A stretch of DNA of 64,000 nt from the NCBI GenBank assembly GCA_029555085.1, contig JAKPTO010000026.1, forward strand, positions 37,217 to 101,216. Reading direction: 5' to 3'. Shown piece by piece: positions 1,985 through 58,131 of this stretch. Origin of the DNA: a bacterium. Lineage in GTDB: Bacteria; Patescibacteriota; Patescibacteriia; UBA1558; S5-K13. Position 1 is the first letter of the stretch. Each line of letters begins with the position of its first letter. Made by a program: the position numbers and the translations under genes. The notes beneath the pieces are model-generated. The model worked only from the letters and a program-made list of their open reading frames with translations, did no database searches and was not told the DNA's origin.

Positions 1985-1988
1985 ATTT

Positions 1989-2645: not shown

Positions 2646-2652
2646 AAATTAT

Positions 2653-25335: not shown

Positions 25336-26048
25336 TGCTTATACAAATCAAAGATATAAAAAAAGAATATTCTAATGATGAAGTAGTAACTGAGATACTT
25401 CACGGATTATCTTTTGAAATTAAAAAAGGTGAATTTGTTTCCATTATGGGTCCATCTGGATCTGGTAAATCAACACTCATGCATATTTTAGGACTTCTGG
25501 ATAGACCTACAACTGGAACATATTTTTTTGAAAATCAAGATGTTTTAAAATTAACTGATGATGAATTGGCAAATTTGAGAAACAAAAAAATAGGATTTGT
25601 TTTTCAAGCTTTTCATTTACTACCAAAAACACAAGTAATAGATAATGTGATGCTTCCACTCATATACTCTGAAGAAAAAACAAATCACAATGAAAAAGCA
25701 AAACAAGTACTAGAAAGTGTTGGACTATCACACAGAATGTATCACTACACGAATCAAATTTCTGGTGGAGAAAAGCAAAGAGTCGCTATCGCAAGAGCTC
25801 TTGTAAACAATCCCGATGTTATTTTTGCTGATGAACCAACTGGAAACTTGGACTCAAAATCAGGAAAGCAAATTATGGAAATTCTACAAGATTTAAATGA
25901 CAAGGGCCATACCATTATTCTCGTAACTCATGAAACATACACCGCGGAACACGCTCATAGAATTATAAAAATTGTAGATGGACTCATAACTGAAGATTAT
26001 AAAGTTTCCAATAGGCGCTTAGCAAAAAACGAAAACGGCATAAAATAA
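25335..26048 (+). CDS. ABC transporter ATP-binding protein (MacB/LolD family)
   Basis: Walker A GPSGSGKST, signature ISGGEKQRVAIARAL, Walker B VIFADEPTGNLD. Confidence 0.93.
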   Translation: MLIQIKDIKKEYSNDEVVTEILHGLSFEIKKGEFVSIMGPSGSGKSTLMHILGLLDRPTTGTYFFENQDVLKLTDDELANLRNKKIGFVFQAFHLLPKTQVIDNVMLPLIYSEEKTNHNEKAKQVLESVGLSHRMYHYTNQISGGEKQRVAIARALVNNPDVIFADEPTGNLDSKSGKQIMEILQDLNDKGHTIILVTHETYTAEHAHRIIKIVDGLITEDYKVSNRRLAKNENGIK

Positions 26049-26049
26049 T

Positions 26050-27303: not shown

Positions 27304-28582
27304 TATGATAAGAATAAAAAATTCAATAAAACTCGCTATTAATTCAATGAAAACAAATAAGGGAAGAACTCTTCTTACTATTTTAGGTATGGTAATTGGT
27401 GTAATGAGTATTGTTGTGGTTTTTTCAGCTGGAGAGGGATTAAAGAAATTAATCATAAAACAAATTGAATCCTTCGGTACTGATATTATTGAAATTGAAA
27501 CAAGAATCCCTGTGGGGAAAAATAAAATGGGCAATGAATCACATGAATCAGCCATGAGTATGGCTCAAGGAGTTCGAATAACAACACTAACATTAAAAGA
27601 TGTAGAAGATATAAAAAAAATACCAAATATAGATGGCGGTTATGGTGCGTTAATGGGGCAAGAACTCGCAACCTATGGTAGTAAAAGAAAAAAAGCGTCT
27701 CTTTTTGGAGTTAGTGCTGATTTTATAAACATTGATAAAAGTGAAATAAATAAAGGTAGATTTTTTACCAATGCAGAAGATGAGTCGCTCACAAAGGTTG
27801 TAGTACTAGGCGCTGGAATAAAAGAAGATTTGTTTGGTGACTCAGATGCAATAGGAAATTATATAAATTTAGGAAAATCAAAATACAGAGTAATTGGAAT
27901 AATGAAAGAAAAAGGAGCTGCCATGGGAATGGACTTTAACAGATATATATATCTTCCCGTGCAAACTCTTCAAAAAAAAATCATGGGGATAGATTATTTA
28001 ATGTATACTATATATAAATTAAAAAACTCTGAAATCACAGATGAAACAGTAAAAGAAGTAAAAATTATCTTAAGAGAAAATCATGATATAAATAATCCCG
28101 ACGATATAGTGGGTGTAGATGATTTTACTGTTGTAACAATGGAAGAAATGATGAAAACCGTCAATAGTATTACAAAATATGTAACCGGCTTACTTCTTGC
28201 AATAGTAATAGTTTCTCTTGTGGTTGGTGGTGTGGGGATTATGAATATAATGTATGTAATAATAAGCGAAAGGACATTTGAAATTGGCCTTAGAAAAGCA
28301 CTAGGAGCAAAAAATAAAGATATTATGTGGCAATTTCTCATGGAAGCAATAATAATATCAATTCTAGGGGCAATTTTAGGTATTATTCTAGGTATTCTAC
28401 TATCACTACTTATAACTTTTGCTGCAAATGCTTATGGTCTTTCCTCGAGTTTTAAAATACCCATTTACGCTCTTTTCATATCTCTAATATTTGCGGTTTC
28501 CACTGGTCTTTTATTTGGTGTTTTTCCTGCAAAAAAAGCTGCGGAACTTAATCCAATAACAGCTCTTAGAAATAAAAATTAA
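27296..28582 (+). CDS. Second ABC transporter permease (MacB-PCD plus FtsX domain), paralogue of the previous gene
   Basis: 428 aa with the same architecture (GGVGIMNIMYVIISERTFEIGLRKALGA). It overlaps the previous gene by 8 nt. Confidence 0.88.
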   Translation: MNNMIRIKNSIKLAINSMKTNKGRTLLTILGMVIGVMSIVVVFSAGEGLKKLIIKQIESFGTDIIEIETRIPVGKNKMGNESHESAMSMAQGVRITTLTLKDVEDIKKIPNIDGGYGALMGQELATYGSKRKKASLFGVSADFINIDKSEINKGRFFTNAEDESLTKVVVLGAGIKEDLFGDSDAIGNYINLGKSKYRVIGIMKEKGAAMGMDFNRYIYLPVQTLQKKIMGIDYLMYTIYKLKNSEITDETVKEVKIILRENHDINNPDDIVGVDDFTVVTMEEMMKTVNSITKYVTGLLLAIVIVSLVVGGVGIMNIMYVIISERTFEIGLRKALGAKNKDIMWQFLMEAIIISILGAILGIILGILLSLLITFAANAYGLSSSFKIPIYALFISLIFAVSTGLLFGVFPAKKAAELNPITALRNKN

Positions 28583-42495: not shown

Positions 42496-44511
<2,016 letters not shown>

Positions 44512-45348
44512 CTAATTAAAATCTTTTAACAAAGATTCTTCAGAAAATATAACATAATCAAATAACCCAGATAAAGGATCTTCTCTTCTTAAACTAACAG
44601 ACAATGCTTGTCTATTAGCATTTTCTATATCTCCTCCGGGATATTGACCAATTGTTTTTATTACATATATATTTTTAAACTTCAGAGAATTATTATCTCC
44701 ATCAAATGCTTGAATTTTTAAATCATGAATATCACAAAATAAAGCTTTGACTCTAAATTGATAAATCTTATTTGGATCTAAACTAGAACCGCCAATTTCA
44801 GTTATTGAATCACTTGACTCGTTTAGTAAAGATTTATAAACATGTTGCGATTCGCCCCCCGCGCTCCAAACAATACTTCCTCCGGACTTCCATTCATTTA
44901 CTGTAAGTTCTATCCAAGAACTATTTGGCGACTCTTCGGTGGAACAATTATCCTCCCAAGAAATTGAAAGATAAGATAGATTACTCGCCTCCCCTAAATC
45001 CTCTAAATTGTAAAGGTCGAATTGAAAAAATTGATTTTTTTTGAGACCTATATTTATACTTTGAATATCGTCATCTACTGTTCTAATTATGGAACTATCA
45101 AAGCCATTAAAAAAATAACTGTCGGTATTTAATTTTTCTGGAATTATGTTTTTTTGCCTTAAATAGTATATTGCTTGTTCATTGCCTGATTCTGCAGCAT
45201 AAAAAGCAATATTTGCATTATCAACGCTTTTAGATTGCTTAATTTGCCTTAAAGAGAATCTTGATACATAAAGAACACTTACCAAAATAGAAGTCATAAT
45301 TAAAAACGCTAATAAAAGAGCTGATCCATTTTTAACTTTAATTGTCAT
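44512..45348 (-). CDS. PilX-like type IV minor pilin
   Basis: 278 aa. The N-terminus KNGSALLLAFLIMTSILVSV resembles the PilX N-terminal domain. Confidence 0.6.
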   Translation of the reverse strand: MTIKVKNGSALLLAFLIMTSILVSVLYVSRFSLRQIKQSKSVDNANIAFYAAESGNEQAIYYLRQKNIIPEKLNTDSYFFNGFDSSIIRTVDDDIQSINIGLKKNQFFQFDLYNLEDLGEASNLSYLSISWEDNCSTEESPNSSWIELTVNEWKSGGSIVWSAGGESQHVYKSLLNESSDSITEIGGSSLDPNKIYQFRVKALFCDIHDLKIQAFDGDNNSLKFKNIYVIKTIGQYPGGDIENANRQALSVSLRREDPLSGLFDYVIFSEESLLKDFN

Positions 45349-45350
45349 AA

Positions 45351-45911
45351 TTATTTTATATAATTTCTTGCACTTACTGTTGTTTGTAATAAAATTTCTG
45401 CACCATCTCTATTATCAACAAATGTCATAACAATTGTTACAAGTGTTTGCTTGTTTAAATCCCCAGCAAGCTTTTCTGTTGATATAGTTGGGCTAATATA
45501 AAAATACATATCTTTCACGCTAACACTATTTCCAGTTACATCACTCCAACCAGAATCATTATATTTAACTTGCAGAAAAGTATTGTTTTTTCCTCCAACT
45601 AATTTTACTTGTTTTCGAAAAAAAATCTTATTACCGGAATTATCTTCTAGAGCCAACTCTGTTATTGGGTTTTTTACTGTAAAATCTGGATAATAAGAAT
45701 AATCAACATTACCCAATCTTACTTCTCTAGATATATAATCCATTGCGAACCTCATCTCATTTTGTACCCTTTGCATTGCTATAATCTTTGTATTTGCCTT
45801 CATTGTTAATATGTACACACCAATACAAATCGTTGAAACAATACTAAAAATAGCAGTCGCGACAATCATTTCAAGTAATGTAAATCCTGGTTTTTTATAT
45901 ATTTTTTCCAT
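45351..45911 (-). CDS. Type IV pilin/pseudopilin with prepilin-type N-terminal cleavage/methylation motif
   Basis: 186 aa with KKPG-FTLLEMIVATAIFSIV. Confidence 0.8.
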   Translation of the reverse strand: MEKIYKKPGFTLLEMIVATAIFSIVSTICIGVYILTMKANTKIIAMQRVQNEMRFAMDYISREVRLGNVDYSYYPDFTVKNPITELALEDNSGNKIFFRKQVKLVGGKNNTFLQVKYNDSGWSDVTGNSVSVKDMYFYISPTISTEKLAGDLNKQTLVTIVMTFVDNRDGAEILLQTTVSARNYIK

Positions 45912-45922
45912 AAATTAAAATA

Positions 45923-46582
45923 CTATTTCCAATTATATATCCTTTCTTGTATCTGGGTTGTTTTGATCGAACCTCCATCGTTCCAACCAACTAAAGAAGT
46001 TACCTGTAGGCCTATAAAATTTGTAGGATCTTCGCATTCTGATTCTGGTGATGTATTAATTATTTCATCTTCCCATTCATCATTATAACAAATCGCATCT
46101 ATATATATTATTCTATAAAAATTAGCATCCGACAATTGATAAGAATCTAATCCCTCCATAGAATCTTTATGAACATATATTTTTTGATTTGGCGATTCTT
46201 CTGGCCAAGCTAAGAACAATTTACATTGTCCAGTCTCAAGACATTTATCCCAAGGTATGCTAATGTATTCTAAAATATATCCATCTTGATCTTCCCTGGG
46301 ATACTTATTATCTAATATAAATGTTCTTGAATCTCCATCAATTGCTAAATCCGGTAATAATCCACTGCTCCACGCTAATCCATCAATCCAATTTGAATCT
46401 CTTATATTTCTAACAACTTCCACTCCTTCTCTGGCTAAGTTCGTGGCTTTAAGCATATTATGATTGAAACGCTCAACCCTAAGATTCGCCACAACTAAAT
46501 TCATAATAGATAAAATACCTACCACTGCTATATAAATAGCTATTACTACCTCCAATATTCCCTGTGCTTTACTTTTTTTCAT
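45923..46582 (-). CDS. Type IV minor pilin-like protein (variant leader)
   Basis: 219 aa with KAQG-ILEVVIAIYIAVVGIL. Confidence 0.6.
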   Translation of the reverse strand: MKKSKAQGILEVVIAIYIAVVGILSIMNLVVANLRVERFNHNMLKATNLAREGVEVVRNIRDSNWIDGLAWSSGLLPDLAIDGDSRTFILDNKYPREDQDGYILEYISIPWDKCLETGQCKLFLAWPEESPNQKIYVHKDSMEGLDSYQLSDANFYRIIYIDAICYNDEWEDEIINTSPESECEDPTNFIGLQVTSLVGWNDGGSIKTTQIQERIYNWK

Positions 46583-46584
46583 AT

Positions 46585-47166
46585 TTAATTATTTAAAAAT
46601 TCAGACCATGTTTTACCAGAACCTGGAGTAATGTTTATTACCCATTTCCCCGGTGCCTTAGTACTGCCTAAAAATATCTGACAAGACAAAACATTTTCAT
46701 CTTTATTTTCATCTATAATAATAGACATTAAACCTTTTGGCATTGAAAAATTAATATCTAATGATTCTAATTCTTTTTCTTCGTATCCAAGTTCTGATTC
46801 ATCTTTAATTTTACACCGTAACTGATCAAAATAAAACTGACTTTCTAAAATATTTTCTGAATAAATTAAATTTTCATTATAAAAACCATAAACACCAATA
46901 TCTGCGTAAATATTATATGAATATGAACCATTTACATCCTTTAAAAAAATTATTCCATAACCATTAATAGGTACTGTATTTTGAATTTTTTGACCTGTTA
47001 GTGAAAGATTTTTTGTAAATCCTATTGAATCTTCTATGTCATAAGCTGTTAAACGAAATTCATTTATTCTTCTTGTATATCCATAATCAAGAATAACAAC
47101 ACTTAAGAGAATTACAAATATACCAATCGCAACTACAACCTCTATTATTGTAAAAGCTTTTTTCAT
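46585..47166 (-). CDS. Type IV pilin/pseudopilin (Ala at position -1)
   Basis: 193 aa with MKKA-FTIIEVVVAIGIFVILL. Confidence 0.7.
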   Translation of the reverse strand: MKKAFTIIEVVVAIGIFVILLSVVILDYGYTRRINEFRLTAYDIEDSIGFTKNLSLTGQKIQNTVPINGYGIIFLKDVNGSYSYNIYADIGVYGFYNENLIYSENILESQFYFDQLRCKIKDESELGYEEKELESLDINFSMPKGLMSIIIDENKDENVLSCQIFLGSTKAPGKWVINITPGSGKTWSEFLNN

Positions 47167-47960
47167 ATAATTAATAAATTAATATACCAATTCAATAATT
47201 GCTCTCCGAAAAGAAAAGAAATAAACATTGCAAAAGAAATAAATGGTCCAAGAGGAATTTTTAATTTAGTTTTTTCTTTTTTAGATTTAGATAATAAAAG
47301 AAAAATACCAATTATTGCTCCGGAAAAGTAAGTAATCAATAACGCCACAATTGTAATTTTAAATCCCAAAAGCGCACCCATAAAAACCCCGAGCAATATG
47401 TCTCCACTACCAAGCCATTTTCCTTTTGAAATAACATATTGTATACCAAAAAAAATTACTCCGAGAACAATCCCATAAAAAATATTTAAAATATTATTTT
47501 TCATTATTAAATTAAAAATAATAGATAAAACTATCCCCAAATAAACTATAAAATCCACTATTAAATAGTATTTCAAATCATAAATAAATATAAAAGACAA
47601 AATAAATACAAGTATTAAATAAAATATAAAGCTAATAATTAATTGACCATGAAGCCAAAGTCCAGAAACAAAGAAAAACCAATATCCGAATGAAAATAAA
47701 ATTCCTAGAATTACCTCAACAAAAAAATTCTCAAATTGAATCTTTGATTTACAATATCTACATTTCCCAAGTAAAACAATGTAAGAAAAAACTGGAATTA
47801 AATCTAAAATCCCCAATGTTTTTTTACAATTAAGACAATACGATCTATTAAGTATTGATTTTTCTTCATTTATTCGATAAATCAAGCAATCTAAAAAACT
47901 ACCAAAAACAGCCCCTAAAATAAAAAATAGTATATAGAACATACCATTATTATAGCACAA
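47163..47960 (-). CDS. pilD: Prepilin peptidase (A24 family, PilD)
   Basis: 265 aa, polytopic, with the N-terminal CLNC...CRYC zinc motif and GSGDILLG. It forms an ATGA overlap with the downstream pilin gene. Confidence 0.88.
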   Translation of the reverse strand: MCYNNGMFYILFFILGAVFGSFLDCLIYRINEEKSILNRSYCLNCKKTLGILDLIPVFSYIVLLGKCRYCKSKIQFENFFVEVILGILFSFGYWFFFVSGLWLHGQLIISFIFYLILVFILSFIFIYDLKYYLIVDFIVYLGIVLSIIFNLIMKNNILNIFYGIVLGVIFFGIQYVISKGKWLGSGDILLGVFMGALLGFKITIVALLITYFSGAIIGIFLLLSKSKKEKTKLKIPLGPFISFAMFISFLFGEQLLNWYINLLII

Positions 47961-47996
47961 AATCTCGGATTATAATATTTATATTTTCATCCAAAA

Positions 47997-48614
47997 TTAC
48001 TTCAAAATTGTACCTGTTTTTATATACCAGATATAAATATCTAACTCTCCCTGACTCATATCCAATTTTTTGCATATTTTATGCATTTTTTTCTCTATTT
48101 CAATATATCTCTTTGGTGTTAATGTTTTATATTCAGCTATTATTCCGTTATCAATCAAACTACTAATAATATGCCTATCTAAAATAGCATAATCAAAAAA
48201 ACCAACATTTCTTAAAAAATGCGACGATTCCTTCATCCCAAGACCTTTTATATTTTTCAAAAGCCACATTCTTTTATCATTTTCTTCTAATAAAATATCT
48301 TTGATGTTTTTATACTTTCTTGCCAAAACAATACGATTCGCGCGTTGAGGCCAAAATCTATGACCTGATTTTTTCAAAAATCTTGCTAATTTTTCTTCAT
48401 TCCAATTTAAAAAACCATTCGGAGTTAATTTTTTTTGAATTTCAATTGACTCTTTTGCTTTCCAATTTGAAGTTAATAAACAATAACAAAGTTCAAAAAA
48501 CCATTCATTGTTTGATTTTTTGTTTAAAATTAAAAAATCTTTTAATCTTCTATCAATTTTATTTTTGATTTTTGATTTTCTTATTTCTTGAATTTTGTTT
48601 ATTAATTTTTTCAT
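47997..48614 (-). CDS. ogg: Archaeal-type 8-oxoguanine DNA glycosylase / N-glycosylase-DNA lyase (Ogg2-like)
   Basis: Motifs FFELCYCLLTSNWKA and GLGMKESSHFLRNVGFFDYAILDRHI. The start is more likely M25 (48614) than the ORF-track start at 48686. Confidence 0.8.
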   Translation of the reverse strand: MKKLINKIQEIRKSKIKNKIDRRLKDFLILNKKSNNEWFFELCYCLLTSNWKAKESIEIQKKLTPNGFLNWNEEKLARFLKKSGHRFWPQRANRIVLARKYKNIKDILLEENDKRMWLLKNIKGLGMKESSHFLRNVGFFDYAILDRHIISSLIDNGIIAEYKTLTPKRYIEIEKKMHKICKKLDMSQGELDIYIWYIKTGTILK

Positions 48615-49269
48615 AATGTAAACAATAATTTTTAATTTTACAAATATTACATTTTGGACCAATTGGCCTACAAATATTTTGACCAAACAATACTAATACA
48701 AAATTTATTTTTTTCCAGTACAACTTATCTAAATTTTTTCTTAAAAACATTTCGGTTTCATACGGAGTCCTTGTGTTTAAATATCCAATTCTATTTAATA
48801 TTCTATGAACATGCGTATCCACACAAATTGCTGGTTTTTTTAAAACTGTAGAAATATATAAATTTGCTGTTTTTCTCCCAATTCCTGGAAGTTTTATAAG
48901 TTCATCGATAGTTTCCGGAATTTTAGAATTGAAATCCTTATTTAAAACAAAACATAATTTTTTTAAATTTTTTGCTTTTGTTTTATAAAAACCAACTGGA
49001 TAAATCAATTTTTGTATTTGTAGATTTGTTAATTTTTGCAAATCTTTACAGTTGCTTACTTTTTCAAATAATCTTAATGATGACTCAAGAGTTGTTTTGT
49101 CTTTTGTTCGTGACGATAAAATTATTGAAATTAAAATCTGAAAATTGTTAAATTTTTTAGAATACAAAAAATCAACAGCAGGAAGTTCAAATTCACTAAC
49201 CTGCTGTGACAATAAATCAAGTATTTTTTCTATTTTTACTTTGATTTCCATAATCCATGAAGATTGCAA
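48559..49269 (-). CDS. nth: Endonuclease III
   Basis: HhH-GPD motif LPGIGRKTANL and a 4Fe-4S cluster loop C-X6-C-X2-C-X5-C (CRPIGPKCNICKIKNYC). Confidence 0.9.
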   Translation of the reverse strand: MQSSWIMEIKVKIEKILDLLSQQVSEFELPAVDFLYSKKFNNFQILISIILSSRTKDKTTLESSLRLFEKVSNCKDLQKLTNLQIQKLIYPVGFYKTKAKNLKKLCFVLNKDFNSKIPETIDELIKLPGIGRKTANLYISTVLKKPAICVDTHVHRILNRIGYLNTRTPYETEMFLRKNLDKLYWKKINFVLVLFGQNICRPIGPKCNICKIKNYCLHYEKINKQNSRNKKIKNQK

Positions 49270-49637
49270 TATGCTCTAACCGTAACAATATTTGCTTTAG
49301 CGTAGAAGTCTGCTTCTGGTTTATCTCCTGGATTTAAAAATTTCTTCCCAGACTTTCCATCATCAGTATTAATTTCAATCCACTCTATAAAATGAGATTC
49401 TTCCATTGGATGTTCAGTTGATCCAACCTTAACTTTGTAACCAAATTCTGTTTTTTCTATAATTGGAACATGTTTTTCATTACCCTGATCTTGTGATTTT
49501 TCTCCTTCTAATCTCATAGCCGTCCCACAACAAACAAGTGATTCTGCTCCAATGTTTAAAACCTCAATAACATTGCCACAAATATCACATTTATAAATCT
49601 GTTTTTTCTTTGTCATAATATTTAAATTAATAATCAA
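49236..49637 (-). CDS. dfx: Desulfoferrodoxin (class I superoxide reductase)
   Basis: 133 aa with the N-terminal desulforedoxin motif YKCDICGNVIEV...CCG, and EKHVPII in the SOR domain. Confidence 0.9.
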   Translation of the reverse strand: MIINLNIMTKKKQIYKCDICGNVIEVLNIGAESLVCCGTAMRLEGEKSQDQGNEKHVPIIEKTEFGYKVKVGSTEHPMEESHFIEWIEINTDDGKSGKKFLNPGDKPEADFYAKANIVTVRAYCNLHGLWKSK

Positions 49638-49692
49638 TTATAAAATTTTAAATACTAAGTAACCAAAATGGAAATTTGATTATTAGTTGTTG

Positions 49693-50262
49693 TTACTTGG
49701 ACATTGTTTCAAAATATGCTTTTGGGTGTTTACATGCTGGACATTCTTCTGGGGCATTTTCTGATTCATGAACATAACCACAATTTCTACAAACCCAATA
49801 AACTTTTTCTGATCTTACAAAAGTAGTATTGTTTTCTAAATGTTCTAAAAATTTCTTATACTTTTCTTCATGATGTCGTTCTGCCTCGGCAATACTCCTA
49901 AGTCTAATTGCAATATCTTTTAAACCCTCGCGTTCTGCTATATCAGCAAATTCTGGATACATTGATGTATGTTCATAATTTTCTCCAGCAATTGCTGCTT
50001 TTAAATTCGCAATTGTATCACCTAAAACAGTAGGACATTCTGAATCAACTTTTATAGCTTCTCCACTATTTTGAGTTAATTCGTTTATAAGTTTCATTAG
50101 AACTTTTGCATGTTCTTTTTCTTGATCTGCTGTTAGTGTAAAGTTAGCTGAAATCTCTTCAAATCCCTCTTTTTTAGCAACAGAAGCATAATAAGTATAT
50201 CTATTTCTAGCTTGTGATTCACCTATAAAAGCTTTTGCTAAATTTTTAATTGTTTCTTGCAT
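49693..50262 (-). CDS. rbr: Rubrerythrin
   Basis: 189 aa with diiron four-helix motifs (E...EXXH twice) and a C-terminal rubredoxin-like CRNCG...CPACKHP. Confidence 0.93.
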   Translation of the reverse strand: MQETIKNLAKAFIGESQARNRYTYYASVAKKEGFEEISANFTLTADQEKEHAKVLMKLINELTQNSGEAIKVDSECPTVLGDTIANLKAAIAGENYEHTSMYPEFADIAEREGLKDIAIRLRSIAEAERHHEEKYKKFLEHLENNTTFVRSEKVYWVCRNCGYVHESENAPEECPACKHPKAYFETMSK

Positions 50263-50339
50263 AATTTTTTAATTAATTATTAATATTTTAAGTATATCAA
50301 ATTCAAACAGCATTATAAAGCGTTGTTAATAGCGTATAA

Positions 50340-51554
50340 TTATTGATAATATTTATTTCTATTATAGTTAAATTCAAAAGATTTATTAAAATCAGATACT
50401 AATGATGGAATATTTGAAACCATAATTGACTCATCGTTTCTAAAAAATCCCCCAGAACTCCAATTATTTGTTCCAAAAAGAGCTATTTTATCATCAAAAA
50501 TCATTAGATGATGGTGTAAAAAAGAATTTAAATTTTGTTCATTAAATATTTGTTTTAATTCTTTATTTCTATTTTCATCAGTCAAAATTTCTAAATTATC
50601 TAAATGATTTTGCTTTTTCTTTTTTATCATAAAATTAAATACGGAACCATCTACTGAAAAATTATAATCATCTGTTAAAATTTTTACACTAATCTTTTTT
50701 GATGCTAATAATAAATCTTCTGCAATATCTCTATCTGTCATAAGCCAAATCATGGATTTTATGTTGTCCTTTGAATTCTCAATCAGATTCAACATTCTAT
50801 CCTTGATACCAGTATTTATTCTTTGTGGAGTAAACCAAATTTCTAAAAATCCTTCTGGATATTTTATAAGAGCAGCGAATGGATTATATTCTTTTGATAA
50901 TTTATCTCTTCCGCGTAAACCAGAAAATATTCTATCAAATTCCTCTCCATATATTTCAATAATTTCTGGCCTGTCAGTTTCTAAAATAAAACTCGGATCA
51001 TATTTATCTTGAATATAAGTAAAATTATAAGAACTAAAGAGTAATTTCTGGGTCTCCTCGCCTCTATCAATTATTATAAATTTATGATGCATGTATTCTG
51101 ATTTTTGAGTATTAATGTTCCTAGACAAAATATCTTTTCTTGTAATATTATCTCGCTTTTCTGAAAACAATCTATTATTTATATCTCTATGCACATCACT
51201 AAAAACTAATTTTATATTCACTCCTCTGTCTGATGCTTTATAAATTGCATCTCTTATCCTTTCGTCGTTCATAGAATAAATAGCCACTTCAATGGTTTTT
51301 TGTGCAGAATTTATAGAATCAATAACAATTTTTGACAAAATGTTTTGTCCAAATTCATCATTAAAATGTAAACTCCCTGAAAATGGTTCTGTGATTTCTA
51401 TGATTTTCGCAGGCCTAAATTCTACTATTCTTCTCTTCGAAAAAGATGTAAAAAATAAGTATATAAAAATTCCCATTGTAATTAATAAAAGAATTGGAAT
51501 TGCCCAAAAAATAAATGTCTTATGTGATTTTTCTAATTTCATCACCCAGCTCAT
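50340..51554 (-). CDS. Membrane-anchored phospholipase D-family protein (two PLD repeats, the second with a variant HKD motif). Third gene of the RT operon.
   Basis: 404 aa with a TM helix (FIFWAIPILLLITMGIFIYLFF). The first motif is canonical: HHKFIIID...FSSYN. The second is HHHLMIFDDKIALFGTNNWS, with Lys replaced by His at the x-K position. It overlaps the upstream gene by 35 nt, or 23 nt if M5 is the start. Confidence 0.75.
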   Translation of the reverse strand: MSWVMKLEKSHKTFIFWAIPILLLITMGIFIYLFFTSFSKRRIVEFRPAKIIEITEPFSGSLHFNDEFGQNILSKIVIDSINSAQKTIEVAIYSMNDERIRDAIYKASDRGVNIKLVFSDVHRDINNRLFSEKRDNITRKDILSRNINTQKSEYMHHKFIIIDRGEETQKLLFSSYNFTYIQDKYDPSFILETDRPEIIEIYGEEFDRIFSGLRGRDKLSKEYNPFAALIKYPEGFLEIWFTPQRINTGIKDRMLNLIENSKDNIKSMIWLMTDRDIAEDLLLASKKISVKILTDDYNFSVDGSVFNFMIKKKKQNHLDNLEILTDENRNKELKQIFNEQNLNSFLHHHLMIFDDKIALFGTNNWSSGGFFRNDESIMVSNIPSLVSDFNKSFEFNYNRNKYYQ

Positions 51555-53235
51555 ATTTTTGCTGATAAGTTAAATAATTATTATTTTCTTTTGAAAATAC
51601 TATAATAATAGAATCTTCAAGTTTTTCACTTAATATTTCTATTATTTTTATAATATCATTATAATTCAAATCAATCCAAATATTGTCAATAATAATAAGT
51701 TGTTTTTTATTAACTATGCAATGGAGCGCTTGAAGAGCAAAGCATGAAACATTATTATTAAAAGCCAACACACAAGAAGAATTAACATTATTTATAGAAG
51801 ATATTTTTGATGCAATAAATTGATTTTCAGATATTACCTTGATCACATTTTCAATTTCAGAAGAATTAATTTGTTCTTTATCTTTCCCTAAAATAAACTC
51901 CATCAAACTTTTTTCTGAAAATATTTTAGGATCGAAAAAATATGCGCCACAGAATAATTTTTGCCATATTGGATAATCATATCTTTTATTGTCTATTTTC
52001 ACCTTCATTGCCTTGGGATTATAAATACGCATTCCTGCAAAAATTTTAGCCAAACTTGTTTTTCCTGAAAAATTCTCTCCAAAAAATAAAATTCTTTCTG
52101 ATTTTTTAAAATGAAAATCTAGATTTCTGAAATATTTACCATCTTTAAATAATTTTGTTTTTTTTGCGTGAAACAATATTTCATTATGAATTTTTAAAGT
52201 ATTTTTTCTACGCAAAACTGCTCCTTTTTGCAATACTGTTAAAAACAAACCCAATCTTGCTGGAAAAAAATATAAACCAACTCTTAGCGCTTGATTAAGT
52301 GTTCTTGGAAAATAGAACATTAAAAATAAAAATAAAAATCTATTATCTCTACCAAGTAAATTTATAAAAGAAAAAAACTCATTTGTAAAAAAATTGCTTA
52401 AAATTACAATTATCAAAACTATCACAAATACAATTTTTGCGCTTATTCCAATCCAAAGATTTCTTCTAATGCGAAAAAAAGAATCTATATTAACAAGACG
52501 ATCAAACTTTTGTAGCACACTATCTTCATTATTAAAATTTTTATTAAAATATTTTTCTGATAAGCTAATATCGATATGTTTTATTATTTGTGAATAAAAA
52601 GTGACTTCTTGCGAAATATATTTTTTTGCAACATAATAAGCTATTATTCCTATAAGAATAGAAAGTGCCACGAAAAAAACGAAAACAATAAATAAATTTA
52701 ATCCTATTAAATATGCAATGAGCATTGCCACAGAAAAATATATGAACCATCTAATTATTCCAAAAAAAACAATTGATACACCCATTGAAACAAGCGATAA
52801 TTGATAAGAAATTTTTGCTATTAACCTACCCTGCCTTTCGTTGTTCATTGTTTCAACGGGTCTATCAATAAATGATTTAAATATTCTGCGCCTAATATCA
52901 TTTGCAAATAATACCACAATAGTTTTTTCTTGTTTTATAGAAAAAAATGAACTTATGATAAACAACAATATAAAAATAGCAAAAAATTGCCAAAAAAATG
53001 GGTCTAAAATACTATTTAGCTGAGATAATTTATTTCTACTAAATACAATAAGAAACGCTTCTATTACACAGGAAACAAAAATTAAAAGAACAAGACGCAA
53101 AATATAAAATTTATATTTTTTAAAAAAATCTCGTAAATACCCGTAATGTAAAAACGATAATTTTATATCTTTGTATTTATTCCTTGTTTTTCTAATTTCT
53201 TTTATTAATCTAATTTGTTCTTTTATTTCTTTCAT
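51520..53235 (-). CDS. ABC-exporter-like protein (type I 6-TM domain fused to a degenerate nucleotide-binding domain). Second gene of the RT operon.
   Basis: 571 aa. The TMD resembles ABC exporters (ANDIRRRIFKSFIDRPVETMNNERQGRLIAKISYQL). In the NBD, Walker A is retained (GENFSGKTS). The LSGGQ signature is replaced (NNVSCFALQALHCI). Walker B is LIIIDNIW (catalytic Glu replaced by Asn). There is no H-loop His. It overlaps the RT gene by 26 nt. Confidence 0.7.
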   Translation of the reverse strand: MKEIKEQIRLIKEIRKTRNKYKDIKLSFLHYGYLRDFFKKYKFYILRLVLLIFVSCVIEAFLIVFSRNKLSQLNSILDPFFWQFFAIFILLFIISSFFSIKQEKTIVVLFANDIRRRIFKSFIDRPVETMNNERQGRLIAKISYQLSLVSMGVSIVFFGIIRWFIYFSVAMLIAYLIGLNLFIVFVFFVALSILIGIIAYYVAKKYISQEVTFYSQIIKHIDISLSEKYFNKNFNNEDSVLQKFDRLVNIDSFFRIRRNLWIGISAKIVFVIVLIIVILSNFFTNEFFSFINLLGRDNRFLFLFLMFYFPRTLNQALRVGLYFFPARLGLFLTVLQKGAVLRRKNTLKIHNEILFHAKKTKLFKDGKYFRNLDFHFKKSERILFFGENFSGKTSLAKIFAGMRIYNPKAMKVKIDNKRYDYPIWQKLFCGAYFFDPKIFSEKSLMEFILGKDKEQINSSEIENVIKVISENQFIASKISSINNVNSSCVLAFNNNVSCFALQALHCIVNKKQLIIIDNIWIDLNYNDIIKIIEILSEKLEDSIIIVFSKENNNYLTYQQKYELGDEIRKIT

Positions 53236-54427
53236 AATGAAAGTCTAAATAAAAATTATATAATGATTTTATTTTTAAATATTCTATCTCTTTTCTTAAC
53301 AACCTTCTGTTGCGTGGTGAATATTTACCAAATATAAAATCTGTTAAAATACGGAAAAAATCTTCTGATAATTTTTTTATTTGTTCTGAGTTATTGATTT
53401 GTGGTTTATCTTTTATAATTTTTTGAAATTGGTAGTTAAAATTTTTTTCTGGATGTCCCATAATCCTTCTCAGTAAATACTTTTTTTTACTTAAATTATA
53501 ATTTTTATATTTTAAAATACTTTTCCAACCAGCAATAATACGCTTAATATATGATTTTTCTAAACTAATAATTCCTGAATTAAAGCAGTAGCCTAAAAAA
53601 GAAAAATTTTCTTTTGCATCACCAATAAATAATTTGCTATTATTTATTGTTAAATTTCTAATATTCAAATCTTTGATAATTTCTAATTTTAATTTATTTA
53701 GCTTGTCTATGTTATTATCAAAAATACCTATATCATCTCCTATTCTTATATAAAATGAACATTGTTTTTGATATTTATGATCAAGGTCTGTTAAATATAA
53801 ATTATTAAAAAGTGCTATTAGTGGAACACCCTGGACAAGACCTATATCAGGTGCTTCTATCTTACCATTTTTATATATTTTATTAAAAATAAATAATTTT
53901 AATAAATCTAATATTTTTCTATCTTCAAAAATGTTTTCCAGTTGTGAGTATAAAACATTCTTATCAATCAAGTCAGAATAGTTTTCCAAATCTAACACTA
54001 ATGCTTTGTCTGTAGAAAAATTTTTCCTATATCTATGGCAAAAATTTTTTGCTGCAAAATATGGTGGCTTGCCCGGCCTATATGAAAACAATCTTTTTGA
54101 AAAAACTTTTTCAAATTCTGGTAATAAAACTCTATAAATTGCCTGTGCTTTTATACGATCTTTTATATTATAAATAAAAATATCCCTGAATTTCTCGGGA
54201 TTATTTTTTTTAGGAATTGAAACAATAAGTGCTGGCTCAATTTCCCTATTTTCAACTAATTCTTTTTGACAAATATCTATAAGCTCCTTTGAATTTAAAT
54301 CTCTGTCTTGTATTGAAATATTATCCAAACCGTGATATCTAAAACTTTTACTATCTATAGAAAATTTTTCCACTATATCTAAATAAGCAGATCGAATATT
54401 ATCATAAGATACAATTTTATTAAACAT
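53210..54427 (-). CDS. Stand-alone reverse transcriptase, with no endonuclease or recognisable maturase extension
   Basis: 405 aa with RT motifs in order:
- SIPKKNNPEKFRDIFIYNIKDRIKAQAIYRVL (motifs 1-2)
- SYRPGKPPYFAAKNF (motif 2a/3 region)
- LVLDLENYSDLID (motif A)
- GLVQGVPLIALFNNLYLTDLD (motif B)
- FYIRIGDDIGIF (YxDD-type motif C)
- LTINNSKLFI...FSFLGYCF (motifs 6-7)
A ~110-aa helical tail follows. Confidence 0.85.
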   Translation of the reverse strand: MFNKIVSYDNIRSAYLDIVEKFSIDSKSFRYHGLDNISIQDRDLNSKELIDICQKELVENREIEPALIVSIPKKNNPEKFRDIFIYNIKDRIKAQAIYRVLLPEFEKVFSKRLFSYRPGKPPYFAAKNFCHRYRKNFSTDKALVLDLENYSDLIDKNVLYSQLENIFEDRKILDLLKLFIFNKIYKNGKIEAPDIGLVQGVPLIALFNNLYLTDLDHKYQKQCSFYIRIGDDIGIFDNNIDKLNKLKLEIIKDLNIRNLTINNSKLFIGDAKENFSFLGYCFNSGIISLEKSYIKRIIAGWKSILKYKNYNLSKKKYLLRRIMGHPEKNFNYQFQKIIKDKPQINNSEQIKKLSEDFFRILTDFIFGKYSPRNRRLLRKEIEYLKIKSLYNFYLDFHYERNKRTN

Positions 54428-54430
54428 ATT

Positions 54431-54624
54431 TTTAAAAATCGTCCTCAGGATATATAATAAAAATACTATATATTAATAAATCTAATGAAGACCCCCGTCC
54501 ACAAACTGGTTACAACCGTTTCCATTTTAATTAATTCGATATTAACGAATATAAAAAATTAAAACTAAAACGATTATTAATATCTCCTAAAATAGGAGTT
54601 TTGAGGATGATTTTTAAAAGTACA
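54431..54624 (-). ncRNA. Candidate structured non-coding RNA / leader immediately upstream of the RT gene (retron msr-msd-like or DRT-type ncRNA)
   Basis: A 17-nt inverted repeat with one mismatch (54431-54447 against 54602-54618) encloses about 154 nt. Inside are local hairpins CTCCT/AGGAG (54584-54598), ATTCG/CGAAT (54534-54550) and AAAC(T)GG/CCGTTT (54501-54521). A locally GC-rich core GAAGACCCCCGTCC stands out in an otherwise AT-rich intergenic region. The 3' arm ends 4 nt before the RT ATG. Confidence 0.4.
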
Positions 54625-54630
54625 TAATAT

Positions 54631-54660
54631 ATTATAGCATGTCAATAAAGCGTATGTAAA
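54631..54660 (-). promoter_or_regulatory. Sigma70-type promoter with extended -10, driving the RT leader and operon
   Basis: Minus strand: TTTACA (54660-54655), an 18-nt spacer, then TGcTATAAT (-10 at 54636-54631). The predicted TSS is near 54624. Confidence 0.5.
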
Positions 54661-54679
54661 GAATAAATATATAATTTTG

Positions 54680-54697
54680 TGATATAATTAATCTATG
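54680..54697 (+). promoter_or_regulatory. Extended -10 promoter placed for a leaderless recG mRNA
   Basis: TGaTATAAT (54680-54688) lies 6 nt upstream of the recG ATG (54695). No SD is present. Confidence 0.45.
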
Positions 54698-56758
54698 AAT
54701 CTAGATACAACACTTGATAAAATCTACGGAATAGGTCCAACAATCTATAAAAAATTACAAAAAATCGGATTAAATACAATATCTGATGCTATTTTTTATT
54801 ATCCATTTAGATATGAAGATTTTTCCCATTTAAAACAAATAAATGAGCTTGTAAATGAAGAATCTGCCACTATAAAAGGAAAAATCATACTTTTAAACAA
54901 TAAGAGATCTCCTAGAAAAAAAATGAATATCACTGAAATGCTTTTAGGAGATGATTCCGGACAAATTCAGATAATTTGGTTTAATCAACCATATATTAAA
55001 AATATATTACAAATTGGAGATGAGATATTTGTTTCAGGTGTTGTAAAAAAATCACTTTTGGGATTATCACTTATAAATCCAAATTATGAAAAAACTAATA
55101 GAGACACATCACACACTGCAAGAATTATTCCTATATATCCATCAACAGAGCATTTATCACAGAAACAACTTAGATACATAATAAAACAATCCTTGTCTTG
55201 TATAAATGAATTACATGAAAGGTTACCAAGTCAAATTATTAAAAAAGAAAATTTAATAGAAATAAAAGAGGCAATAAAACAAATTCACTTTCCAGATAAT
55301 TATAAAAAATTAGATCTTGCAAAAAAAAGATTATCATTTGATGAAATATTTTTATTATCATGTTTATCAAAATTTATTAAAAAACAAAATATTGAATTAA
55401 GCGCTCCTCAAATTAATTTCAAGGAAAAACAGATAAAAGATTTAGTAAAAAAAATTCCATTTAAATTAACAGAAGATCAAAGAAAGGCAACCTGGCAAAT
55501 TCTAAAAGATATTAGCCACAAAATTCCAATGAATAGACTTCTTGAAGGCGATGTAGGAAGTGGAAAGACAATTGTTTCTTTTATCTGCGCTTACAATGTA
55601 ATCTTGAACAAATATCAAGCAATTTTAATGTCTCCTACTCAGATTTTAACAAAACAACACTTTGAAAATGCTGTAAAATTTTTCAAGGACTATGATATTA
55701 ATATTTTACTTTTTACAAACTCTGACAGATTATTATTTAATGGAAAAAAACAATTAGCACAAAAATTAACAAAAAAAGAAATTAATAAGTTTGTCAAAAA
55801 ATCTGATTTTATAATAGGAACTCATTCTTTAATTCAGCAAAATGTAGAATTCAAAAATATTGGGCTCATAATAATTGACGAGCAACACAGATTCGGAGTT
55901 AAGCAGCGTCAAGAATTAACAAAAAAATCAGATATTAGTCCACACTTTTTATCAATGACTGCAACTCCAATTCCAAGATCTCTAGCGCTTACAATTTATG
56001 GAGATTTAGATATTTCAAAAATTTTACAAAAACCAGCAAACAGAAAAAAAATTATTACAAAATTTGTATATTCTCGCAACAGAACAAAAGCTTATGAATT
56101 TATTTATAACCAGATCCAAAACGGCAGACAAGTTTTTGTTGTGTGTCCACTTATAAATGAATCGGATAAATTAGGAGTAAAATCCGTAATGAGTGAATAT
56201 GAAAAATTAAGCAACGACATTTTTCCAAATTTAAAAATAGAATATTTACATGGAAAAATGAAAGAAACAGAAAAGCAAAAAATTCTAAAAAGTTTTTCTG
56301 ACAATGAAACAAAAATTTTAGTATCAACTTCTGTTATTGAGGTTGGAATTGATTTTCCAAATGTAACAATAATGATAATTGAAGGTGCTGATAGATTTGG
56401 ATTGGCATCACTCCATCAATTTCGAGGTCGTGTTGGTCGCGGAGAACATCAATCATTTTGCTTTTTATTTTCTGAATCAAACTCAGAAAAATCCCGTAAA
56501 CGTTTAGAAATATTAACAAAAACAGATAATGGATTTGAACTCGCAGAATATGATTTAAAATTTCGTGGAAGTGGAGATTTGTATGGAATAAAACAATCAG
56601 GATTTATGAATGGAGTGAAAATTGCAGATTTATCAGATTTAGAATTAATCAAAAAATGCAATATTTGGGCTCAATATATTTTTGAAAAAGGTCTTGAAAA
56701 ATTCCCTCAAATAAAAAAAGAGATAGAATTACTATCTTCTGATATTCACTTGGAATAA
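54695..56758 (+). CDS. recG: ATP-dependent DNA helicase RecG
   Basis: 687 aa with an N-terminal wedge/OB region, helicase motifs GDVGSGKT and DEQHRFG, and HQFRGRVGRG. Confidence 0.95.
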   Translation: MNLDTTLDKIYGIGPTIYKKLQKIGLNTISDAIFYYPFRYEDFSHLKQINELVNEESATIKGKIILLNNKRSPRKKMNITEMLLGDDSGQIQIIWFNQPYIKNILQIGDEIFVSGVVKKSLLGLSLINPNYEKTNRDTSHTARIIPIYPSTEHLSQKQLRYIIKQSLSCINELHERLPSQIIKKENLIEIKEAIKQIHFPDNYKKLDLAKKRLSFDEIFLLSCLSKFIKKQNIELSAPQINFKEKQIKDLVKKIPFKLTEDQRKATWQILKDISHKIPMNRLLEGDVGSGKTIVSFICAYNVILNKYQAILMSPTQILTKQHFENAVKFFKDYDINILLFTNSDRLLFNGKKQLAQKLTKKEINKFVKKSDFIIGTHSLIQQNVEFKNIGLIIIDEQHRFGVKQRQELTKKSDISPHFLSMTATPIPRSLALTIYGDLDISKILQKPANRKKIITKFVYSRNRTKAYEFIYNQIQNGRQVFVVCPLINESDKLGVKSVMSEYEKLSNDIFPNLKIEYLHGKMKETEKQKILKSFSDNETKILVSTSVIEVGIDFPNVTIMIIEGADRFGLASLHQFRGRVGRGEHQSFCFLFSESNSEKSRKRLEILTKTDNGFELAEYDLKFRGSGDLYGIKQSGFMNGVKIADLSDLELIKKCNIWAQYIFEKGLEKFPQIKKEIELLSSDIHLE

Positions 56759-56793
56759 ATTAAGAATATAAAATAAGCTAAACAATTCAAAAC

Positions 56794-58131
56794 TTAAATT
56801 AAAAACTTTTTAAGTTCTTTTATATTTTTGATACAATTCAAATTAATTCCTTTTACATCAACTGCTTTTTCAAAACTTGGAATAATTATATTTTTAAATC
56901 CTAAATTCACTGCTTCTTTTATTCTCTCTTTTGTTTTTGGTATTTGTCTAATTTCTCCATTGAGTCCTACTTCACCAAAAAATACTGAATTTTCCATAAT
57001 TTTTTTATTTTCATATGATGAATAAATTGCCACCGCAACCGCTAAATCAAGCGCGCGGTCCGAAACTTTGAAGCCACCAGTTAAATTAATATAAACATCA
57101 TATAAATTTAATTTTAAATCTAATTTTGATTGAAGTACTGCTATAAGTAATTCTAATCTTTTCTGATCATAACCAGATACGGTTCTTTTTGGATAACCAA
57201 AATTTGTTTTTGATACAAGTGCTTGAAGTTCTAACATTAAAACCTGATTTCCTTCTATAATAGAAGTAATTGCCGTGCCTGAACTTTCTGGATTAATTGA
57301 TGACAAATAAATTTTTGATGGATTTATCACTTCTTTAAATCCTGATTTTGTCATCTCTAAAATTACCGACTCATCAGTTGCTCCAAATCTATTTTTAACA
57401 GATTTCAAAATTCTAAATCTATGCAATCTATCACCTTCAAGACTCAGTACGCAATCAACTAAATGTTCCATTGTTTTAGGTCCCGCTAAATCACCTGATT
57501 TATTTACATGACTTATGATGAGAGTTGCAATATTAAATTTTCTTGCAATTTCCATAATTTTTACAGTACAAGCCCTTACTTGCGCGACTCCACCTGGATC
57601 GCTTTCAATCTCACTCGTGTAAAGTGTTTGAATTGAATCTATAATTAAAAAATCTGGTTTGATTTTTAATATTCCAGCTAGAATTATTTCTATATTATTT
57701 TCTGCCAAAAACTTTACTACTTTACTATCAACTTCCAATCTATCAAAACGAGATTTTACTGAACTTGCACTCTCTTCTCCTGAAACATATAAAGTATTTA
57801 AACTCTTGTTTATAATTTGAGAAATAATTGTAGATTTTCCAATCCCCGGCTCACCACCAAGTAAAACCAAAGAAGAAGGAACTAATCCTCCTCCGACTAC
57901 TTTATCAAAATAAGTTAATCCTGTTTTTATTTTTTTAACTTGTTCATTTTTTATTTTTGACAAATCTATGAAATCAACTTTTAAATCTTTTAAATTTTCT
58001 GTTTTGTCTTTTCTTTCGTCTTCGATAAATGTTTCTTTTTCTAATGTTCCCCAAGCACCACACTCAATACACTTTCCAGCCCATTTCGGAAATTGTGCTC
58101 CACATTTTGAACATGAATATATTGTTTTCAT
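56794..58131 (-). CDS. radA: DNA repair protein RadA/Sms
   Basis: 445 aa with the Zn finger CSKCGAQFPKWAGKCIECGAW, Walker A GGEPGIGKST, the KNRFG motif and a Lon-like C-terminal domain. Confidence 0.95.
   Translation of the reverse strand: MKTIYSCSKCGAQFPKWAGKCIECGAWGTLEKETFIEDERKDKTENLKDLKVDFIDLSKIKNEQVKKIKTGLTYFDKVVGGGLVPSSLVLLGGEPGIGKSTIISQIINKSLNTLYVSGEESASSVKSRFDRLEVDSKVVKFLAENNIEIILAGILKIKPDFLIIDSIQTLYTSEIESDPGGVAQVRACTVKIMEIARKFNIATLIISHVNKSGDLAGPKTMEHLVDCVLSLEGDRLHRFRILKSVKNRFGATDESVILEMTKSGFKEVINPSKIYLSSINPESSGTAITSIIEGNQVLMLELQALVSKTNFGYPKRTVSGYDQKRLELLIAVLQSKLDLKLNLYDVYINLTGGFKVSDRALDLAVAVAIYSSYENKKIMENSVFFGEVGLNGEIRQIPKTKERIKEAVNLGFKNIIIPSFEKAVDVKGINLNCIKNIKELKKFLI

Follow-up and report, generated by a model that had tools for sequence, protein, structure and literature searches.

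A reverse transcriptase-linked cassette of Patescibacteria encodes an ABC-exporter-fold protein that lacks the ATP hydrolysis motifs

A 64-kb stretch of a Patescibacteria genome (contig JAKPTO010000026.1, assembly GCA_029555085.1; G+C content ~28%), hereafter referred to as the window, contains a four-part cassette. It consists of a pseudoknotted leader RNA, a group-II-like reverse transcriptase (RT), a pseudo-ABC (ATP-binding cassette) protein encoded by the invariant middle gene, and a membrane-anchored enzyme of the phospholipase D (PLD) superfamily. According to its structural model, the product of the middle gene is a membrane protein with the full-length fold of a type I (type IV) ABC exporter, and the motifs of its nucleotide-binding domain (NBD) indicate that ATP hydrolysis has almost certainly been lost. 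A cassette of this composition has apparently not been described before. We tentatively propose, at somewhat less than an even chance, that the ABC-like protein spans the membrane as an adaptor or effector, works without hydrolysis and links the RT and RNA in the cytoplasm to the PLD enzyme outside, most likely in a conflict (defence) system. The parts of the cassette, in the direction of transcription, are:

54631-54660, minus strand: promoter candidate, sigma-70-like (TTTACA, 18 nt, TG-extended TATAAT)
54432-54616, minus strand: structured leader/non-coding RNA, ~185 nt, directly upstream of the RT gene
53210-54427, minus strand: RT, 405 aa, group-II-intron-like/UG class-2-like
51520-53235, minus strand: ABC-like open reading frame (ORF), 571 aa, ATG start
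50340-51554, minus strand: PLD-superfamily protein, 404 aa, two HKD motifs

Results

Overall structure of the ABC-like protein

An AlphaFold2 model of the ABC-like protein, computed with an alignment of 25 homologues as input, has a mean pLDDT (predicted local distance difference test) of 77. The NBD scores 75-93 per 10-residue block, mostly above 80. The helix boundaries of the transmembrane domain (TMD) given below are those of the model.

52231-53235, minus strand: residues 1-335, a basic N-terminal helix followed by a six-helix type I exporter TMD
51523-52200, minus strand: residues 346-571, NBD-fold domain with Walker A and the Walker B Asp retained

A Foldseek search with this model aligned ~570 columns with PglK, MsbA, TM287/288, TAP, PCAT1 and HlyB (E-values of 5e-15 to 1e-12; 5e-15 to 1e-13 for PglK, MsbA and TM287/288), the best matches being the lipid flippases PglK and MsbA. 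The family profile also matches the TMD of MsbA (E 1.5e-11). Matches of the single sequence are marginal: the TMD reaches 31 bits against Pfam ABC_membrane (cutoff 28) and the NBD 25.8 bits against ABC_tran (cutoff 25), covering the Walker A half of that model only, while phmmer against PDB sequences returns weak matches to ABCB10, TM288, MsbA and ExpZ. Despite these scores, the assignment to type I exporters holds on the strength of the model and the full-length fold matches. In conservation profiles, the TMD carries long cytoplasmic extensions that bear its most conserved motifs (EKT..N..RRRIF, AKISYHLPLVSMGVS, YISQEVTFYSQIIK and FDSxFRIRRDLW).

Loss of the catalytic motifs

Three kinds of alignment were used to locate the motifs of the NBD, and all agree: profile-to-PDB alignments (MsbA, TM288), an alignment by MAFFT that included four canonical exporters, and an alignment of 134 family sequences. 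All window coordinates of these motifs were verified by translation.

52054-52080, minus strand: Walker A, GENFSGKTS (canonical GRSGSGKST)
51919-51942, minus strand: Q-loop, YFFDPKIF, with Pro (P436) replacing Gln
51745-51765, minus strand: signature site, AFNNN at the LSGGQ position
51664-51699, minus strand: Walker B/D-loop, LIIIDNIWIDLN; LIIID followed by N518, which replaces the catalytic Glu
51583-51612, minus strand: H-loop, IIIVFS (canonical xxIAHR), with S548 replacing His

The D-loop is two residues shorter than usual and retains its Asp. A preliminary description of the window, made from the sequence by eye, had seen a normal type I exporter TMD, a preserved Walker A, and the loss of the signature, the catalytic Glu and the H-loop His. 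Structure prediction and alignment bear this out, with the motifs registered correctly to within 1-2 residues, and the intact motifs that a misregistration could have hidden were found in none of the alignments. The window provides an internal control against an artefact of base composition in a MacB-type NBD (25335-26048, 119 bits), in which the corresponding motifs are present as GPSGSGKST, ISGGE, FADEP and THE. This ATPase lies in a canonical MacAB-like operon (23650-28582, plus strand), together with an HlyD-family adaptor and two MacB/FtsX permeases.

The same pattern extends through the family, for which we compared 68 close members and 60 divergent cluster representatives. GK[ST] of Walker A is kept in 64/68 and 32/60, respectively, and the Walker B Asp in 68/68 and 50/60. 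The catalytic Glu is kept in 0/68 and 3/60, and the H-loop His in 0/68 and 1/60. None of these 128 family members (0/68 and 0/60) has a signature-like motif. Of the 28 divergent representatives without GK[ST], 10 have lost the Walker B Asp too. Family-specific conserved motifs (DNxW[LI]DLxY, FALxxLHC and YFFDP) now stand at the old motif sites. The combination of hydrolysis motifs lost family-wide and new conserved motifs in their place argues that the NBD is under selection and is not decaying. On these alignments, the NBD was turned into a module lacking the hydrolysis residues before the family diversified. A canonical ATP-sandwich dimer of such NBDs is unlikely, since the signature motif is absent.

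Nucleotide binding is a separate matter. In the clade of the window protein, the P-loop Lys (K392) and the Walker B Asp (D517) are invariant and thus under purifying selection, so that nucleotide binding is probably retained there. The earlier suggestion that the protein binds but barely hydrolyses ATP is therefore reasonable for this clade; it does not extend to the whole family, given the loss of the P-loop in 28 of 60 divergent representatives. The suggested nucleotide-sensing role does not survive as the shared function of the family. Its very divergent members P0249 and P0280, which share 17-18% of their residues with the window protein, lack the P-loop but still lie between RT and PLD genes. 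As the P-loop is lost in deep branches that retain the cassette, nucleotide binding or sensing cannot be the family-wide function.

Gene order and distribution of the cassette

Gene order was compared in six contexts that had been retrieved by protein identity and in 40 loci taken from GTDB contigs (one genome per species). Wherever the contig permits a reading, the genes stand in the order RT, ABC-like protein, PLD (45/45 loci). In the window, the ABC-like ORF overlaps the RT ORF by 26 nt and the PLD ORF by 35 nt, which places it firmly inside the RT operon, as had been noted from the sequence. Clustering of the flanking genes revealed no gene common to all loci beyond these three. The promoter candidate agrees with the consensus at 11/12 positions and is the best site in 50100-54800 (a consensus match, from which the start of transcription is inferred). 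It ends ~12 nt upstream of the leader RNA, suggesting that the RNA probably heads the RT-ABC-PLD transcript.

No canonical half-transporter that could serve as a partner was found near the ABC-like gene: a full exporter lies within 5 kb in 1 of ~40 loci (L027). The flank cluster labelled 'ABC' (10 loci) was discarded as a source of partners, since its genes, at a distance of 1.6-4 kb, encode generic stand-alone NBDs or ABC-F proteins. An association with type IV pilins, as reported for UG4, was also considered, prompted by one locus (L008) and by a pseudopilin operon in the window. It was rejected, a pilin-like flanking ORF being present in only 5/39 loci. In L008 itself (1602-4800), two type IV pilin paralogues lie between the RNA (2617-2788) and the RT gene (4809), and a third, near-identical pilin gene is located immediately upstream of the RNA, an arrangement that resembles local pilin amplification around the RNA.

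A search of 5.8 billion proteins yielded 69 homologues of the ABC-like protein at 30-71% identity, all from Patescibacteria-type metagenome-assembled genomes. When 1.84 billion cluster representatives were searched exhaustively with a profile, 89 clusters scored at E<=1e-30. The family is small and sharply bounded, as scores beyond its clusters drop into generic ABC exporters. Intact ORFs of ~570 aa are present in ~128 cluster representatives, and many positions are invariant or near-invariant across the family. The cassette was found in Patescibacteria (the candidate phyla radiation, CPR) only, in ~40 of 185,579 species representatives; at least two genomes (HGW-Falkowbacteria-1 and SO_2017_GW1_115) carry two diverged copies.

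Two borderline matches of the representative search, P0278 and P0274, lie outside RT-ABC-PLD triples and were excluded from the family, whose boundary they mark. P0274 (L050:1709-4905) is a more canonical ABC exporter, with Walker A, Walker B-Glu and a partial signature. On its short, unrelated contig, its gene is convergent to and abuts a gene for a 442-aa RVT_1 protein. This adjacency may be a coincidence or a separate RT-ABC association.

The PLD enzyme

The third protein of the cassette has the following features:

51456-51512, minus strand: N-terminal signal-anchor helix, residues 15-33
51066-51089, minus strand: HKD1, HHKFIIID, canonical
50493-50516, minus strand: HKD2, HHHLMIFD, residues 347-354, of the form HxH

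It matches PLDc_2 with an E-value of 4e-31, and its sequence-level matches are nuclease-type proteins (NucT, Nuc, Zucchini, DrmC). The two-HKD superfamily fold is borne out by the model (pLDDT 93) and by Foldseek. Both motifs are conserved in 39 homologues and in two divergent loci (L047 and L048). In all 39 + 2 of these, HKD2 is HxH rather than HxK with the remaining motif residues intact, giving an asymmetric, family-specific active site. Foldseek was not informative as to whether the enzyme is a nuclease or a lipase, since PLD3/PLD4, vaccinia F13, bacterial and true phospholipases D and PssA all score about equally.

Every homologue has one N-terminal hydrophobic helix. The flanks of this helix contain on average 4.9 Lys + Arg residues on the N-terminal side and 2.2 on the C-terminal side. 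The N-terminal flank is the richer in these residues in 33/39 homologues, the C-terminal flank in 1/39. By the positive-inside rule, the helix is a type II signal anchor (N-in/C-out), so that the catalytic domains are probably extracytoplasmic.

The RT

The catalytic motifs of the RT are intact (LDLENYS, 53975-54001; RIGDD, within 53726-53752), and the Asp residues of LDL and xGDD are invariant, with GDD present in 40 homologues. The protein matches Pfam RVT_1 (E 3e-13) and, over the RT domain only, TIGR04416 (125 bits, E 4e-36, below the cutoff of 300). Among the hidden Markov models (HMMs) of PADLOC, the generic RT model scores best (7e-39), followed by UG26 (2e-31) and UG17 (4e-25); retron RT models match weakly (RT_IX, 8e-6; RT_II-A, 3e-5). 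Among solved structures, the GsI-IIC RT is the closest to it (E 4e-17). Overall, the enzyme is related to about the same degree to group II intron RTs and to the UG class-2 models. All 176 matches that make up the RT family are Patescibacteria-type.

The leader RNA

In nearly every locus, at least 180 nt of non-coding sequence precede the RT gene. Inspection by eye and a stem search showed that a long-range helix closes this region and that its two arms covary from locus to locus. RNAalifold predicted 22 pairs from 30 loci, 19 of them with compensatory changes. A covariance model (R1) matches 40 times across the loci. Its single match in the window is at 54432-54616 on the minus strand (109.6 bits, E 5.5e-26). 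In the resulting alignment, 93.8% of the cells are paired, compared with 34-46% in slid controls, and 0/500 shuffles reach the observed covariation. Two crossing helices (columns 36-41/91-98 and 72-75/99-102) reach ~95% pairing each, with compensatory changes at every pair; they form a pseudoknot.

The RNA of the window is closed by stem P1 and further contains hairpin P2, a pseudoknot and a 3' hairpin. The pseudoknot forms between AUAUUA and UAAUAU, the latter being the loop of a UUCG/CGAA hairpin. Its minimum free energy (MFE) is -52.4 kcal/mol (z = -5.35). Our claim is limited to the inner part of P1, the pseudoknot together with the stem of the small hairpin, and the 3' hairpin in its consensus form. 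Projection of the window's MFE structure on the covariance-model alignment gave no support to a long stem P3, to the outer portion of P1 or to the register in which the 3' hairpin is drawn: pairing there was 40-54%, as in slid controls. These elements were not retained; the discrepancy is probably an alignment-register problem. The RNA has no Rfam match at E<=1 in 49000-56000.

The window has a single copy of the RNA. Four related loci have two tandem copies upstream of the RT gene:

L012: 4319-4497 and 4622-4793
L024: 4441-4609 and 4620-4804
L025: 4391-4560 and 4576-4778
L039: 928-1188 and 1234-1502

The 3' arm of P1 (54432-54450 in the window) reads UGAGGACGAUUUUU, and GGGGGUGAU in relatives. 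It is purine-rich, and its end is 0-23 nt from the RT start codon (54427 in the window). In group II introns, DIVa masks the ribosome-binding region of the RT. Formation of P1 could act in the same way here.

Discussion

Relation to known systems

The closest precedent for an RT that works with a non-coding RNA (ncRNA) and a membrane effector is DRT10 (bioRxiv 10.64898/2026.04.29.721553, 10.64898/2026.06.29.735271), a tripartite system of an RT, an ncRNA and a SLATT membrane effector (bioRxiv 10.64898/2026.04.29.721553). As in DRT10/UG17, a structured RNA stands 5' in a tight operon, the RT is a stand-alone enzyme of class-2/group-II-like type, and a membrane protein is the obligate partner. 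The conserved RNA upstream of the RT is likened to that of DRT10 by its position and structuredness. However, the partner in our cassette is a 571-aa protein of ABC-exporter fold and not a SLATT with two transmembrane helices, and a PLD gene is added. No SLATT was detected beside the RT gene by Pfam or PADLOC, the adjacent genes being those of the ABC-like and PLD proteins. The RT of the window matches the UG17 HMM (E 4e-25), although by HMM score UG26 and group II models fit it equally well or better. The RNA has no Rfam family and the host range is confined to CPR. Tandem-repeat complementary DNA (cDNA) synthesis is a feature of DRT10, as is defence, a role that we tentatively propose for our cassette.

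Type I-A retrons (Ec78/Eco7), which consist of an RT, msr/msd, the ABC/SMC-type ATPase PtuA and the HNH protein PtuB, similarly combine an RT and an ncRNA with a P-loop protein of the ABC superfamily and a nuclease-family protein. Their RNA, too, lies directly upstream of the RT and is closed by long-range inverted repeats. PtuA, however, is soluble and catalytically competent, whereas the ABC module described here is hydrolysis-dead and fused to an exporter TMD, and the second effector is a PLD-superfamily protein instead of an HNH protein. The cassette does not appear to be a retron: retron RT HMMs match weakly, and no Rfam retron msr was detected in 49000-56000 at E<=1, the closing inverted repeat notwithstanding. 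Nor is it a mobile group II intron, for the same search of 49000-56000 (E<=1) revealed no intron RNA domains. Group II intron RTs (GsI-IIC, group II maturases) are the nearest solved relatives, and like the domesticated G2L4 RT, the enzyme stands alone without intron RNA domains. It differs from them in its active site (xGDD in place of YADD/YIDD), and in its obligate linkage to membrane proteins and to a pseudoknotted RNA of its own. An RT review and a survey of UG/Abi RTs describe an ABC or PLD partner for no RT group. The literature searched contains no description of an RT-ABC-PLD cassette or of a CPR-specific RT system, its coverage being incomplete and such an absence no proof of novelty.

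The ABC-like protein belongs with ABCB-like half-transporters by its fold, Walker A and Walker B, and departs from them in its signature, catalytic Glu, Q-loop and H-loop. Similar substitutions of the catalytic Glu, the H-loop His and the signature occur on the same fold in exporters with a degenerate site (TM287/288, TmrAB, BmrCD, TAP1/2, MsRv1273c/72c) and in CFTR. Such sites bind ATP and do not hydrolyse it (PMC5216877, PMC12038006, PMC3691448). Those proteins always keep one consensus site, in the partner chain or the second half. In contrast, Q-loop, signature, catalytic Glu and H-loop are all missing from the ABC-like protein, which has no encoded partner and, in its deep branches, lacks the P-loop too.

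The PLD enzyme resembles PLD3/PLD4 and Nuc/NucT in the PLD-superfamily fold with two HKD motifs (or, in dimers, single ones). PLD3/4, which are single-stranded DNA (ssDNA) exonucleases by their entry titles, have an N-terminal single-pass type II anchor and a non-cytoplasmic catalytic domain, the arrangement predicted for our enzyme. Identity to these proteins is 12-14%, and the second motif is HxH family-wide where theirs is HxK.

Possible functions

With the RT and RNA in the cytoplasm and the PLD enzyme probably outside, a link across the membrane is needed, and the ABC-derived protein is the sole candidate for it. In the mechanism that we tentatively favour, the RT and leader RNA would work in the cytoplasm, the catalytic domains of the PLD enzyme would face the outer side of the membrane, and the ABC-derived protein would bridge the two. 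The NBD-like domain and the conserved cytoplasmic helix extensions may form a docking and switch module. Its ligand could be a nucleotide in the clade of the window protein, or the complex of RT with RNA or cDNA more generally. Binding of this ligand, without hydrolysis, would flip the exporter-type TMD between states, so that the RT product controls a pair of membrane effectors in a system of antiviral or abortive-infection type. The analogy with DRT10 and with retrons that use membrane or ATPase-plus-nuclease effectors makes a conflict or defence role the most probable frame.

Several points weigh against this proposal. An extracytoplasmic PLD would be odd for a classical abortive-infection nuclease effector, and its external location has the positive-inside rule as its sole basis. 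PADLOC assigns no known system to the ABC-like protein or to the RT-ABC-PLD triple; its one hit for the ABC-like protein, a weak P-loop match to mad8 (E 0.0016), was dismissed. The cassette is chromosomal, with flanks that vary between its lineages and are partly syntenic inside them, and its neighbours are housekeeping rather than defence genes. No relatives were found among IMG/VR viral contigs or PLSDB plasmids, so carriage by mobile elements is rejected. Taken together, these features do not resemble a typical mobile defence island.

The probable location of the PLD enzyme outside the cytoplasm also revives a translocation-type role, powered by a source other than ATP hydrolysis, although the earlier description had favoured sensing or gating over transport. 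The RT might dock on the NBD-like domain and thread nascent single-stranded cDNA through the exporter-type TMD, the outward PLD trimming, releasing or transferring the DNA at the cell surface. ATP hydrolysis would then be dispensable, because the energy would come from polymerisation of deoxynucleoside triphosphates. Such a polymerisation-driven conduit would account at once for an exporter fold kept with its motor lost, for the tight coupling of RT, ABC-like protein and PLD, and for the probably extracytoplasmic PLD. The best structural matches of the latter include the type II-anchored 5' ssDNA exonucleases PLD3/PLD4. RT-derived DNA export was proposed for SLATT partners by Burroughs et al. 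(2015), as cited in bioRxiv 10.64898/2026.04.29.721553. On the other hand, the fold search does not separate nuclease-type from lipid-type PLDs, and DNA that is made only to be degraded outside would require an additional rationale. Moreover, we know of no precedent for the passage of nucleic acid through the cavity of a type I ABC exporter. We consider this conduit unlikely.

A fuller version of this idea, which strikes us as improbable, regards the whole cassette as a synthase-dependent machine for nucleic-acid secretion. The RT would copy part of the pseudoknotted RNA to ssDNA and push the strand through an ATP-independent, ABC-derived channel; the outward PLD3/4-like enzyme would cut the DNA or transfer it to a surface acceptor by transphosphatidylation. 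If this were true, ultra-small CPR symbionts could display or release templated DNA extracellularly.

Another reading is a function in the envelope or in scavenging of episymbiotic CPR cells, unrelated to defence, which we regard as rather unlikely. Here, an MsbA/PglK-like lipid handler and an external PLD, acting as phospholipase, transphosphatidylase or nuclease, would harvest or remodel host lipids or nucleic acids, and the RT and RNA would be a regulator or accessory. CPR bacteria lack lipid and nucleotide synthesis of their own. The top fold matches are lipid flippases, true phospholipases and PssA occur among the PLD matches, and the chromosomal, partly syntenic, CPR-restricted distribution resembles that of a lineage-specific physiology. 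However, this leaves no role for a catalytically intact RT and a conserved pseudoknotted RNA that are translationally coupled to the other two genes. The presence in ~40 of 185,579 species, with two copies in some genomes, is unlike a core physiological function, and the sequence-level matches of the PLD point to nucleases.

It is very improbable that the protein is an ordinary ATP-driven transporter, with residual activity or in a heterodimer with a canonical half encoded elsewhere, to which the RT is adjacent by chance. Heterodimeric exporters with one degenerate site are common (TM287/288, TmrAB, MsRv1273c/72c; PMC5216877, PMC12038006), and canonical ABC proteins are present in CPR genomes. 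However, in known heterodimers the P-loop of the degenerate half is always preserved, along with either the signature or the Q-loop, whereas all four catalytic motifs, and often the P-loop as well, are lost here; the ORFs overlap and their order does not change even in members with 17% identity, and a full exporter is nearby in just one locus. Finally, a decaying, non-functional transporter relic, which the marginal Pfam scores and lost motifs might suggest, is effectively refuted by the conservation pattern: intact ORFs across ~128 representatives and 89 clusters, many invariant positions, conserved family-specific motifs and a mostly confident NBD fold.

For the biology of ABC transporters, the family would be an example from nature of an entire exporter fold that selection has maintained although its ATPase machinery, and in some branches its P-loop as well, was discarded. 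The cassette would show what such a fold can do without its motor, whether as adaptor, gated pore or passive conduit. For RT biology, an ABC-exporter fold with an externally anchored PLD is an apparently unreported type of partner. The new pseudoknotted RNA joins a growing set of RT, ncRNA and effector combinations, in a group of bacteria where RTs other than those of diversity-generating retroelements are poorly explored. The predicted layout, with the RT inside and the PLD outside, would allow a direct test of a long-standing idea, according to which certain RT-associated membrane proteins export or sense RT-made DNA.

Genomic surroundings

The regions around the cassette (42496-49269 and 54695-58131) contain DNA-repair genes, redox genes and a type IV pilus block. 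Named from their ORF translations, they include ligA, two HhH (helix-hairpin-helix)-type glycosylase/endonuclease III-like ORFs, recG in divergent orientation, radA, pseudopilins with a prepilin peptidase (44512-47960), and desulfoferrodoxin-like and rubrerythrin-like ORFs. Rubrerythrin is the sole neighbour in the window that is common to related loci (L007, L012 and L015); we claim no functional link.

The most divergent cassette examined, that of P0280, is followed after its PLD gene by a giant ORF of >2417 aa (L048:6729-11549) with no Pfam match on record. Two very large ORFs also occur in the window, giant surface-type proteins being frequent in CPR genomes, and across its whole length the tmRNA (transfer-messenger RNA) and tRNA genes are the only Rfam matches at gathering level:

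14813-20356, minus strand: very large ORF, 1847 aa
33635-38758, minus strand: very large ORF, 1707 aa
21522-21912, plus strand: tmRNA gene, 91 bits
23196-23272, plus strand: tRNA-Asp(GTC) gene

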